Assembly: GCA_951406725.2 (NCBI GenBank)
Contig: OX597828.1
Location: forward strand, 26,164,001-26,228,000
Length of the DNA stretch: 64,000 nt
Direction: 5' to 3'
DNA from: Octopus vulgaris
Lineage: Eukaryota
In this document: positions 83 to 62,340 of the stretch, one piece after another
Layout of the letters: each line of letters begins with the position of its first letter
How positions within the stretch are numbered: position 1 is the stretch's first letter
Notes under the pieces: generated by a model
Seen by the model: only the letters and a program-made list of their open reading frames with translations
What the model was told of the DNA's origin: nothing
The model's database searches: none
Made by a program: the position numbers and the translations under genes

Positions 83-181
83 TGTGTGTGTATAAAAAAT
101 ATATATAAAAATTATATATAAAAATACAAAATGGGACAAGAACGCAAAACATTCAAATAGACGACACGAAAACGGACGGGT

Positions 182-240
182 CATTCGAAGCCTCTAATCT
201 TCAGTCAAGAACCGGATCATCCTCACAATTTCGACTGATT
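182..240 (-). ncRNA. 3' half of a permuted hammerhead-like motif (same repeat family as 32824-32966 and 52545-52644)
   Basis: Minus strand reads cagtc-GAAA-ttgt...tcttga-CTGAAGA-ttagaggcttcgaatg; truncated by (TA)n at 241. Confidence 0.55.
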
Positions 241-494
241 ATATATATATATATAAGCAAAATAGCTAGTTATAGAACCTCCTATTCTCCGCCAGCTGGT
301 TATCGGTGCAACATTCTGCACTCTTTATAAACAAGATATTGCTCGGAGGAGCGGGGCGAACGCTTACTACCCTCTCGCAGTTAACAAGCTCGCGAGACTG
401 AATTAGTTTCGAGCTATTTGGCTGATCTTCAGCCGCGAGCACCTGCACACCAGAGCGATACCCAGAATCTGCCACCGTTAACAATGTAGAGTTT

Positions 495-12807: not shown

Positions 12808-12857
<50 letters not shown>

Positions 12858-24896: not shown

Positions 24897-25425
24897 CGAA
24901 ATGCGTAGCCGTATTTCTGAGTTCAAATTCCGCCGAGGTCGACTTTGCCTTTCATCCTTTCGGGGTCGATTAAATAAGTACCAGTTACGCACTGGGGGCG
25001 ATATAATCGACTTAATCCGTTTGTCTGTCCTTGTTTGTCCCCCCTGTGTGTAGCCTCTTGTGGGTAGTAAAGAAATAGGTATTTCGCCCATCGCTACGTT
25101 CTGAGTTCAAATTCCTCCGAGGTCGACTTTGCCTTTCATCCTTTCGGGGTCGATTAAATAAGTACCAGTTATGCACTGGGGTGGATATAATCGACTTAAT
25201 CTGTCTGTCCTTGTTTGTCCCTCCTGAGTTTAGCCCCCTGTGGATAATAAAGAAATAGGTATTTCGCCCATCGCTACGTTCTGAGTTCAAATTCCGCCGA
25301 GGTCGACTTTGCCTTTCATCCTTTCAGGGTCGATGAAATAAGTACCAGTTACGCACTGGGGTCAATGAAATCGACTATCCCTCTCCCCCAAATTTAAGAC
25401 TTTCTGCCTATAGTAGAAAAGGAAT
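24897..25425 (+). mobile_element. Head-to-tail array of three headless SINE family B bodies (~180-bp period)
   Basis: ttctgagttcaaattc at about 24915, 25099 and 25279. Confidence 0.88.
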
Positions 25426-27002: not shown

Positions 27003-27353
27003 TACCTATTTCTTTACTACCCACAAGGGGCTAAACACAGAGAGGACAAACAAGGACAGACAAACGGATTAAGTCGATTATATTGACACCAGTGCGTAAC
27101 TGGTACTTATTTATCCACCCCGAAAGGATGAAAGGCAAAGTCGACCTCGGCGGAATTTGAACTCAGAACGTAAGGGCAGACGAAATACGGCTATGCATTT
27201 CGCCCGGCGTGCTAACGTTTCTGCCAGCTCGCCGCCTTTAAGGAAGAAAGGCAAAGTCGACCTCGGCGGAATTTGAACTCAGAACGTAGCGGCAGACGAA
27301 ATACCGCCAAGCATTTCGTCCTGCGTGCTAACGTTTCTGCCAGCTCGCCGCCT
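27003..27353 (-). mobile_element. SINE family B, full copy plus a duplicated 5' half
   Basis: ctgccagctcgccgcctt occurs twice (about 27221 and 27337). Confidence 0.9.
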
Positions 27354-28177
27354 TATCATCATAAATACAGTTATCTTATTTACGTTTAGGTGTCGTCAAA
27401 AATTGAGCTGATTTCCTTCTCATTATTGTCATCCTTCTGCTGTAAACCGAACGGAAGAAGTATATTCATTGTTTATATATAACATGCAGTTATATAATTA
27501 AATATTGTTATATTCAAAATAAAAGACAAGCGAAGCAAGTTGATATGGAGATATATAGTAGCTATGTAATGTTAGTATTACTTATGGTAGGGCAGTGGAC
27601 ATACATACATAAATATGCCCCACTGAAATGGCTTCCTCATAACTTGCATAAAAATGCATATTTTTTTATGAAAGTTTCTATAAATATGCTTCAATTGGTA
27701 TAGATTTCGATAATATATGAATTTGTTGTGAAAAATGTATTTGAGGGTGGGGGTGCGTGGGAGTAGAGATTCGAAAAATTCACACGGTTCGAAGAAATAG
27801 GTATTTTTAAATGAAGAATTCGACAAATGCTTTTCAGAGTGTGCCAATTATATCAGAATTCGATAACTAAATAAAAATTGGTGGTGTAGCACACAAACGT
27901 ACTGACACACATCACCTTTTTGTTTCGAAAAATTTATGATCACAACAAATTCCAGTATAACCCGAAATCTACGCCATCGGAAGCATATTTGCAGAAAATT
28001 TCAATAAAATTCATATCCATGTTTCTGAAAGTTATAAGGAAAGAAATTCGCTGGGGCACATATGCGTAGGTATGTTTCAGCAATCCCTGGTCGATTATTG
28101 TGTGTCATTTCGCATGGGTTACACGAAGTCCATAGTAAACATATATTGTTTTAAATAACAACAACAACAACAACAAC

Positions 28178-30841: not shown

Positions 30842-30876
30842 GTTTCCGACGAAGAGCTCCGCTCGAAACGTCATAC
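30842..30876 (+). ncRNA. Minimal type I hammerhead motif in a Penelope-like short repeat (30767-30972)
   Basis: gttt-CCGACGA-a-gagc(tcc)gctc-GAAAC-GTC-atac. Confidence 0.7.
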
Positions 30877-30968
30877 CCTCCTTCTTCCCTTTTTTCCTGA
30901 GCGCCCAATAATACTTTATTTGTTCCACATCCTCGCGTTGTTGTCTTTTTGTTTTCTTATTTGGATTA

Positions 30969-31923: not shown

Positions 31924-31959
31924 GTTTCCGAAGAAGAGCGTCTGCTCGAAACGTTAAAC
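31924..31959 (+). ncRNA. Minimal type I hammerhead motif in a Penelope-like short repeat (31845-32043)
   Basis: gttt-CCGAAGA-a-gagc(gtct)gctc-GAAAC-GTT-aaac; stems I and II fully paired. Confidence 0.75.
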
Positions 31960-32042
31960 TTTCTTTCCTTCCCTGAGCGTTTGCTAATACTTTACATGTA
32001 CCACATCCTCGCGTTTTTGTTTTGTTCTTCTTTTTGGGGATT

Positions 32043-32086
<44 letters not shown>

Positions 32087-32823
32087 GGGACTTCCATAGT
32101 TTCTGTATATGAAATTCACTTACAAGGCATCGATCAGCCCAGAACTATAGCAAAAGATATTTGCCTAAGGGGCTTCAATTATTTACACCGACTTTTCTCC
32201 TTTTTCTTTCTTTTTTAGGCCTGTGGGTATTCGAATATCTGCAAATGTACTATTCTTGCTTCTTATAAATGGAACATGAAAAATTTCGTCTTGACATCAT
32301 ATGGCTGCAAGTAAACGTCATTGACAAGGCTCACAATGTCGAAATGCATCCCATGGATTATAAAATATTTCGACCTTCACCACGTCGCCATTATGCCGAG
32401 TTTGTTCTCTCTCCATGTTTGATGAAGAAATTTCCATATTTATTTCTCCTTTGTCCTTTCTGTTAATCATTTCCATCTTCCATTTCGATTTCTCGCAATA
32501 TATGTCTTAACTAAAGAGGGTCTTGCGTAAGGGGATGTATTTCCTCTTATATACTACACAAGATCTAAAACATACGAATTAACTGCTTTCAAACTATCAT
32601 TATTTGTTCAATTTCATTATCACAAACTATATATATATATAGCATCTCTTATATTCCTTCCCATGACTTTCATGTCTTATATTCCTGCCGTAAGGCTTCA
32701 CTTCCACACACGCCAGCTTAATTTAATTCGTCTTTAATCGAAAGACACTTGTTGTTAATGTACTGTTGTTTGTATTTGTAATTGTGTACAATTTCTCCGG
32801 TTTTTTTTCCTTGTTTTCGTATA

Positions 32824-32966
32824 CATTCGCTTGCTTTCTTCGAAGGAGTCTAGTGCTCTTAGCTTAGATTTTCTTGGGGCCAACCAGATCGGAACAGTTT
32901 CGAGTGTAACTGGCCGAAACTGCAAAGATGATCTGGAATTCGACTGAGGATAGGAAGCTCCGAATG
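32824..32966 (+). ncRNA. Candidate non-circularly permuted hammerhead ribozyme, family X
   Basis: cagt-T-tcgagt (32895-32905), tggcc-GAAA-ctg (32911-32922), attcga-CTGAGGA (32938-32950); all stems pair; see findings. Confidence 0.65.
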
Positions 32967-33183
32967 ACTCGTCCTTGTTTTTTTCCTGTCCTTTTTTGTG
33001 CCGTCTAACTCTCCGGATATTTTGTTGTCGCCTGTTACGTTCTTGTTCCATTTTTTGTTTTCTTTTCAGAACATTTATAAATAGAAGGTCTAACAGAAGT
33101 TTCCAGGATATTTTATATATCCCTTCATCGGAGCATTACCTCACACCTTTGGGTCTTCTTGACACCATTACCTCTCCTTACCT

Positions 33184-52331: not shown

Positions 52332-52544
52332 ATTATGTCTATTTTTGTAATTAATAAATATATTTATTAATTGATTAATCTCTATTTTCTTTATGTCTAG
52401 TCGAAAGACGCCTGTTTGTGATGTCCTGTTATTGTTATTTTATTATCATTATTGTTTCTACGTTTTATTATTATTGTTTTTACGTATTATTTTTGTATCC
52501 ATATTCGTGTAACATCGTCCGTTTTTCCGTCCTTGTTTTGTATA

Positions 52545-52644
52545 CATTCGAAGCTTTCTTCCAAGGAATCTAATGCGCTTAGCTTAGTTTTTCCTTGGGG
52601 CTAGCCAAATTGGAGCAATCTCAAGATTTATCAGCCGAAATTGC
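52545..52644 (+). ncRNA. 5' half of permuted hammerhead family X
   Basis: cattcgaagc...ggct...gcaat-C-tcaaga-tttat-cagcc-GAAA-ttgc; CUGANGA half deleted. Confidence 0.55.
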
Positions 52645-52695
52645 GAAATCGTCTCCTAAATGTTTTGCGTTCTTGTCCCAGTTTGTATTTTTATG

Positions 52696-62124: not shown

Positions 62125-62340
62125 GTACAGTTCTATATTTAAGAGATGAAGAATTATGTACATTATTTACATTTTTTACATTATTTACACTATCTATATT
62201 GGACGGAAATTTGTCCTCATCTTGTCTGTTGTTAACACAACGTTTCGGCTGATATACCCTCCAGCCTTCATCGGGTGTCTTGGAGAAATTTTGAACCTGG
62301 GTTCTCATTCCTAAGGTATTTTTTTATGTTATTATTATTA
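62125..62340 (-). mobile_element. Inverted copy of the HHR-bearing tail of the element at 62341-62655
   Basis: Reverse complement of 62505-62655, extending a little further. Confidence 0.8.
62234..62279 (-). ncRNA. Minimal type I hammerhead motif
   Basis: gacac-CCGATGA-a-ggctg(gagggtatat)cagcc-GAAAC-GTT-gtgtt. Confidence 0.78.

Follow-up and report, generated by a model that had tools for sequence, protein, structure and literature searches.

A predicted hammerhead ribozyme with a non-circularly permuted, reopened core at the 3' end of Naiad-type repeats in Octopus vulgaris

Background

A 64,000-nt stretch of the Octopus vulgaris genome (contig OX597828.1; hereafter the window) contains the conserved strands of a hammerhead, arranged in a way that departs from the circular strand order and three-way junction of types I, II, and III as represented by the Rfam families. 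A preliminary description of the motif mentioned that non-circular hammerhead permutations had emerged from computational screens. These are real: Eckert et al. 2023 (PMC10085705) divide the hammerhead into blocks C, G, and S, which are assumed to be uninterruptible, and validate one such order, type SGC. The tested SGC ribozymes cleave during transcription, SGC forms are slow (0.007-0.13 per min), and by that account none of the SGC RNAs lies in the genome of any known organism. Statements attributed here and below to PMC and bioRxiv sources pertain to the sections of those sources used for comparison.

Layout of the motif

The strands assigned to the hammerhead in the preliminary description are all present at the positions given there. 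Stem III is formed by CAGT (32895-98) and ACTG (32919-22), with U as H17 (32899); stem I by TCGAGT (32900-05) and ATTCGA (32938-43), the latter followed by the core CTGAGGA (32944-50); and stem II by GGCCA (32878-82) and TGGCC (32911-15), followed by GAAA (32916-19). The extra helices were likewise correctly placed (32884-90/32930-36, 32833-39/32952-58, and 32824-29/32961-66). One of these, CCAGATC/GATCTGG, had been taken for an extension of stem III; it is instead the counterpart of the helix between stems I and II in type SGC (helix X), and the position of its 5' strand matches the HRIMA-1 rows of Eckert et al. The order of the blocks, S-G-C, indeed equals that of type SGC, but the strand after CUGANGA is not a stem II strand, and block C is broken. 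This break, the conserved hairpin P4, and the link to Naiads, a group of Penelope-like elements (PLEs), were missing from the preliminary description. The parts are collected in Table 1.

Table 1. Features of the motif and of its repeat copies in the window
Feature	Position	Strand	Remarks
Closing helix P0, 5' strand	32824..32839 (32824-29 + 32833-39)	+	pairs with own 3' strand; permutation test
Hairpin P4, between P0 and G10.1	32841..32877	+	13 pairs, 84-93% of cells paired
Stem II 5' strand, G10.1 first, detached from CUGANGA	32878..32883	+	3/6 pairs with double changes
Helix X 5' strand (stem I-II interaction helix of type SGC)	32884..32890	+	4/7 pairs with double changes
Block S: stem III 3' strand, U16.1 (32898), H17 (32899), stem I 3' strand	32894..32905	+
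Predicted cut, inside block S	32899/32900	+	expected 3' of H17
Block G: stem II 3' strand, GAAA (32916-19), stem III 5' strand	32910..32923	+
Helix X 3' strand	32930..32936	+	descriptor and covariation
Broken block C: CUGAGGA preceded by stem I 5' strand, stem II strand lacking	32938..32950	+
Closing helix P0, 3' strand	32952..32966	+	starts 1 base past A9
5'-truncated old copy of non-autonomous Penelope-like (Naiad-type) repeat	32640..33066	+	fixed 3' end, (TA)n on 5' side
Second copy, other subfamily, 3' part of motif lost	52539..52650	+
Third copy, lower bound approximate	150..241	-	5' end 7 nt past predicted cut, adjoins (TA)n

In the proposed architecture, the 5' part would run from the P0 5' strand through P4, the stem II 5' strand, and the first strand of X to the stem III 3' strand, UH, and the stem I 3' strand. 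After a 3-4-nt linker, the 3' part would comprise the stem II 3' strand, GAAA, and the stem III 5' strand, then the second strand of X, and then the stem I 5' strand with CUGANGA, which the P0 3' strand would follow after 0-2 nt.

A structural descriptor of the permuted-order core with stems I to III of at least 4 bp, composed after the motif was known, matched once in the window and twice in 150 block-shuffled windows (0.013 per window); when helix X was also required, there were 0 matches in the 150 shuffles. The fold z-score of the motif is -2.47. An Rfam scan of the window motif and a young copy gave no match to the hammerhead families, and returned only sub-threshold microRNA matches driven by microsatellite sequence. 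Elsewhere in the window, CUGANGA-stem-GAAA motifs of ordinary order occur at 62274, 47908, and 432, all on the minus strand. Fragments of another PLE-like repeat hold two degenerate motifs that resemble a minimal type I hammerhead, with a core, a short stem II, and GAAA; they lie at 31928-31975 and 30846-30890, both on the plus strand, and the two regions are similar to each other. The tandem arrays at 24915-25376 and 27124-27354 are built from a SINE-like repeat, in units of 180 and 116 nt.

Covariation and core signature

When copies were collected and aligned, as the preliminary description had proposed, both covariation and conservation of the core were seen across subfamilies. The main alignment holds 34 octopus copies that were hand-picked from many subfamilies for a full 5' part. 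Within stems I, II, and III together with the I-II helix, 15 of the 24 pairs show double changes (4 of 6 in stem I). Double-change cells number 80, compared with 25.4 after shuffling, and 0 of 500 shuffles reach the observed value, a control that related sequences can beat even without structure; 90% of cells are paired, versus 18-46% in slid controls. The old family, to which the window copy belongs, and a young subfamily differ by four double changes within stems I, II, and III. For P0, the 5' and 3' strands of the same copy pair better than swapped ones (0 of 2000 permutations, 28 copies, with kinship uncorrected).

The search pattern itself fixed CUGA/GA and GAAA for most rows, and U16.1 and H17 lie outside it. 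U16.1 is invariant (34/34 copies), H17 is other than G in 33 of the 34 (C28 A4 U1 G1), N7 varies freely (A18 G8 U7 C1), and G10.1 is kept in 32 of 34. The motif thus has the hammerhead's CUGANGA, GAAA, U16.1-A15.1, non-G H17, and covarying stems I to III. It lacks the junction of A9 to G10.1, direct or through 1-2 bases; the bases that follow A9 pair with P0.

In a coral-type family from metagenome contigs (24 of at least 120 loci aligned, 2 of them partial), 92% of cells are paired among the matches listed. Double changes in stem I, X, and P0 separate its two subfamilies, again among the matches listed. The number of double-change pairs did not exceed that of shuffles in the coral set (228/500) or in the old family alone (121/500). 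Three of 54 references were left out of the first alignment, and 6 truncated rows of 25 out of that of family B, a second octopus family, in which P0 appears weak by eye. The strict descriptor rejects the majority of old, decayed copies; it was passed by 14 of 60 loci, 3 of 25 family B copies, and 8 of 85 coral-type copies among the matches listed. Minimum-energy folds never produced the core, which is pseudoknotted, and preferred other hairpins. A covariance model of the window's family, built without the pseudoknotted stems, found two more copies in the window and missed family B (best E 1.2).

The host repeat and the copy in the window

The motif sits at the 3' end of a copy of a dispersed repeat, for which 3443 candidate matches, 40 of them scored, were obtained in the 2.8-Gb genome; the core pattern occurs at 12,856 places, compared with 82 for a reversed control. 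Thirty loci share a 3' end near 33066, vary in 5' extent, and are 87-93% identical over 200 nt. Monomers measure 700-860 nt, with tandem units of 772-783 nt in the young subfamily and 699-859 nt in others. The unit does not code for protein; its longest ATG frame has 72 aa. A short frame upstream of the motif was discarded, and the idea of a SECIS element was given up because there is no ORF. In the young subfamily, 39 of 40 scored matches are identical over 211 nt and are spread over many chromosomes, and a 20-mer has 570 exact genome matches. The old family and the young subfamily are about 73% identical, and similarity between subfamilies is mostly restricted to some 200 nt around the motif. 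At two loci (L051 and L091), a 3' piece of the young subfamily is fused directly to an old-family unit body, as either a chimera or a nested insertion.

The window copy differs from the family majority at 9 positions within the motif, including H17 (U for C) and stem III's outer pair. The GUU site of the preliminary description is present in this copy, inasmuch as 32899 is U, but it is not the family site: H17 is C in 47 of 51 aligned family copies, and GUU is therefore a mutation of the window copy. The same U creates an 8-bp hairpin, cagtttcg/cgaaactg, a decoy over GAAA with an energy of -10.0 kcal/mol, compared with -8.6 and -5.4 elsewhere (-5.4 in the young subfamily). The window copy is probably impaired as a ribozyme and would make a poor test construct.

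The best 30 of 148 GIY-YIG loci are PLEs with a C-terminal endonuclease, apart from one other gene, and have no similarity to the motif; neither these loci nor the unit flanks contained an RT-coding partner of the window's own family. Two loci (L172 and L177) belong to a PLE family, likely active, in which many 781-aa frames are intact and GIY-YIG is C-terminal. Its 3' region consists of tandem repeats, and the pattern finds no hammerhead in the first 1.4 kb.

Relation to Naiads

According to Craig et al. 2021 (PMC8557442), Naiads lack a canonical hammerhead, with only 'core' or 'half-core' cases reported, and insert at (TA)n targets with 5' truncation, partial tandems, inverted 5' pieces, and a short tail. 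The loci of the window's family have all of these insertion traits. They differ from Naiads in being non-coding, without the Naiad-type ORF (N-terminal GIY-YIG, C-terminal RT).

The last 330-600 nt of 52 of the 54 published Naiad consensus sequences were surveyed by eye, a range that misses motifs farther upstream. Nine of the 52 3' ends carry the rearranged architecture, and their stem letters are unrelated. They are Bfor (weak stem I), 3_Chem, Amil, Anas, 2_Movir, Plae, Obim, Ovul, and Esco (stem II imperfect). These span Ctenophora, Cnidaria, Acanthocephala, and Mollusca. Two of the forms were checked on the DNA of individual loci: family B of the octopus genome, which corresponds to the end of Naiad_Ovul (504 exact matches versus 3), and the coral-type family of the metagenome contigs, with its at least 120 loci. 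Upstream of family B lie decayed C-terminal pieces that look RT-like by eye and have no Pfam match, and there are 4 same-strand co-locations with RT-like matches within 2 kb. By eye, the window's family is closest to Naiad-2_Movir. Anatomy and the shared motif together suggest that the family is of Naiad origin.

Other Naiad 3' ends in the same source (PMC8557442) carry other motifs. Those of Naiad-1_Movir, 4_Chem, and mussel and clam Naiads have twister-like motifs at the same place, and nematode Naiads have ordinary-order hammerheads with long stems (both by eye). A common conserved structured motif is found in oyster, ark clam, pearl oyster, and hemichordate Naiads and in Naiad-1/2_Chem; this oyster/hemichordate-type motif is a candidate for another self-cleaving RNA.

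Insertion 5' ends at the predicted cut

A ribozyme that makes the template's 5' end would be expected to leave insertions that start at or just past the cut. For the young subfamily, an anchor 114 nt downstream defined 101 units, 18 whole and 83 truncated, of which 1 edge duplicate was dropped. Starts at 0 to +9 are seen in twelve of the 82 truncated units, compared with an expectation of 1.5 (p 8e-8), or 2.0 with a correction for start letters (p 1.5e-6); three of the twelve coincide with the cut. No unit starts at -1 to -24, versus 3.0 expected. Five of the 12 ends begin at one TA able to pair with a (TA)n target, and one of the three exact ends is an internal joint to a further piece of the element itself; several of the distant 5' ends are alignment artefacts.

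Among the coral-type matches listed, 58 of 93 loci start at -2 to +10, seven of them at 0, and 5 of the other 35 start at -3 to -15; 27 of 120 loci, at contig ends, were left out of this count, and the sample cannot reveal ends past +10. In family B, 4 of 25 copies start at or just past the predicted cut, two of these being neighbours. The pile-up is likely a footprint of cleavage in vivo.

Proposed mechanism and alternatives

We assign a probability of about three in four to the reading that one unit folds the usual hammerhead core and is cut past H17, and that reverse transcription runs to the end so made. The preliminary description had proposed a rearranged hammerhead in a cephalopod retroelement family, and covariation, the core signature, element anatomy, and the 5'-end pile-up now argue for a non-circularly permuted hammerhead in a Penelope-like family. 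The ribozyme would lie near the 3' end (pLTR) of Naiads and of their non-coding 700-860-nt derivatives. P0 would stack on P4, so that A9 and G10.1 would meet across the nick and a single molecule could fold the usual core. The lack of a spacer at A9/P0/P4/G10.1, seen in the coral-type family (among the matches listed) and by eye in Naiad_Plae, fits a stacked P0/P4 that keeps A9 beside G10.1. The predicted cut past H17 (32899 in the window) would define where the RNA template begins at its 5' end. Reverse transcription that set out from the 3' end of the element would run off there, and would leave copies, and upstream pLTR pieces, that start at or a few bases past the cut. Read-through copies would derive from uncut RNA, and slow or regulated cutting is therefore expected. 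Whole units would likewise require that the downstream ribozyme stay uncut, in line with the slow SGC rates. Caution is warranted by the Poseidon study (PMC11167929), in which cleavage was dispensable in vitro and no read ends lay at the site of the Anolis element; reverse transcription of Poseidon starts internally, near the tail.

Alternatively, the same ribozyme may need to dimerise across tandem units, or to be helped by an element protein as chaperone, before it is active, the lone monomer being unfolded. Units do often stand in tandem, stem II strands of the old family are palindromic in places, and competing hairpins dominate the predicted folds. There is also precedent, in that minimal PLE hammerheads work as dimers (PMC4209133) and the Poseidon hammerhead needed protein (PMC11167929). 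The preliminary description, too, had called a monomer fold sterically doubtful, given linkers of 0-1 nt, and thought that a dimer might be needed. This doubt is weaker than it seemed: in the tests of Eckert et al., SGC ribozymes whose linkers are likewise 0-1 and 3 nt long cleaved as single-unit transcripts, and on present evidence a dimer is thus not needed. In addition, stems I, II, and III each reach at least 5-6 bp inside one unit, and units whose 5' ends lie at the cut are mostly solitary (13 of the 16 loci inspected). We therefore consider a requirement for a dimer or chaperone unlikely.

A smaller chance still is given to a conserved structure that is not catalytic, such as a binding or pause element for RT built from hammerhead parts, at which stalling in the pseudoknot would pile up 5' ends. 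It would explain why A9 is not joined to G10.1 and why most of the piled-up ends lie 3-10 nt past the cut rather than on it, and TA microhomology could add to the peak. Set against it are the edge of the pile-up, which coincides with the predicted bond in each of two unrelated families; the gap just upstream of the cut, though stem III and X strands lie there; the significance of the excess, p ~1e-6 even after start-letter correction; and the retention, across four phyla, of all catalytic letters and of the U16.1/H17/N7 pattern.

It is very improbable that the motif is an ordinary type SGC in which the stem II 3' strand has the post-CUGANGA bases as its partner. By eye, four post-A9 bases of the young subfamily could pair out of register with that strand, but this pairing is lost in other subfamilies, the stem II 3' strand covaries with the upstream strand, and the post-A9 bases covary with the P0 5' strand. 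A chance arrangement in a repeat-rich genome, for which the short motifs and the after-the-fact descriptor might speak, is refuted by cross-family covariation, the layout, with helix X required, being absent from 150 shuffles and recurring with unrelated stem letters at loci of three families and in other phyla.

Beyond the single-unit hammerhead that is cut past H17, a wider reading, which we favour with less assurance, would hold that the topology is beyond the six permutations considered possible, with an opened core strand held by P0 and P4; that it is old and active in Naiads from ctenophores to cephalopods; and that it cleaves in vivo and sets the template 5' end, and with it the starts of pLTR pieces. 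In this wider reading, Naiads would be swapping ribozymes rather than lacking them, among the rearranged form, ordinary hammerheads, twister-like RNAs, and the oyster/hemichordate motif, which may be one more ribozyme.

Novelty and significance

Full-text searches of the literature, taken as that outside subscription papers and the notes of Repbase and Dfam, gave no description of a permuted hammerhead in Naiads or of this form. The rearranged form is absent from the sections consulted of a retrozyme preprint (bioRxiv 10.64898/2026.07.22.740005), PMC11662667, PMC6962438, and PMC7229834. In the literature searched, which included sections of PMC2632901, no hammerhead put to the test has its backbone interrupted between A9 and G10.1. 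By its predicted strand order, the form is outside the six defined hammerhead permutations.

Per the literature searched, this would be the first non-circularly permuted hammerhead with many examples in the genome of a known organism, and the first whose core strand is opened between A9 and G10.1. Such an opening would call for permutation searches to be designed differently and would give engineered switches a new site. The motif would also give a concrete answer to the apparent lack of hammerheads in Naiads, which are dominant in many invertebrate genomes. The 5'-end pile-up makes the role of PLE ribozymes in vivo directly testable, and the construct can be taken from the young subfamily, whose near-identical copies number in the hundreds.

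Comparison with known systems

The proposed role has a counterpart in R2, a non-LTR element. Its template is excised from a longer transcript, and self-cleavage by a 5' ribozyme of HDV-like fold sets the template's 5' end. As for the opened strand, single extra bases between A9 and G10.1 are known in viroid hammerheads.

The minimal type I hammerheads of canonical PLEs resemble the octopus motif in their pLTR position and in a likely role in processing precursor RNA; they differ in their circular strand order, weak stem III, and dependence on a dimer or protein (PMC4209133; PMC11167929). Animal non-LTR retrozymes are likewise non-coding, ribozyme-bearing, tandem units (PMC7229834; bioRxiv 10.64898/2026.07.22.740005), and both they and the octopus repeat are probably derived from PLEs and moved by them. 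The hammerhead of retrozymes is of type I and their unit about 170-400 nt long, whereas the octopus units bear the rearranged ribozyme and are 700-860 nt long, dispersed, and 5'-truncated.

Type SGC shares with the octopus motif the order S-G-C, the linker of about 3 nt between stems I and II, and the helix that joins the other sides of these stems. Spacers of 0-1 nt flank the I-II helix in the HRIMA-1 rows (PMC10085705), most of which have an extra U past A9, and the octopus motif has similar spacers and a base, often U, at that point. The two differ in that CUGANGA of type SGC continues into a stem II strand, whereas in the octopus the stem II strand and its X partner stand on the 5' side, and helices P0 and P4 span the gap between A9 and G10.1. 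They differ also in that the SGC RNAs of that source are from no known organism's genome, whereas the rearranged form is present in animal genomes at more than 10,000 places. Lacking an intact block C, the motif would work like type SGC and is not a member of it as defined. Its predicted architecture is that of an SGC hammerhead whose ends have been joined and whose chain has been reopened between A9 and G10.1.
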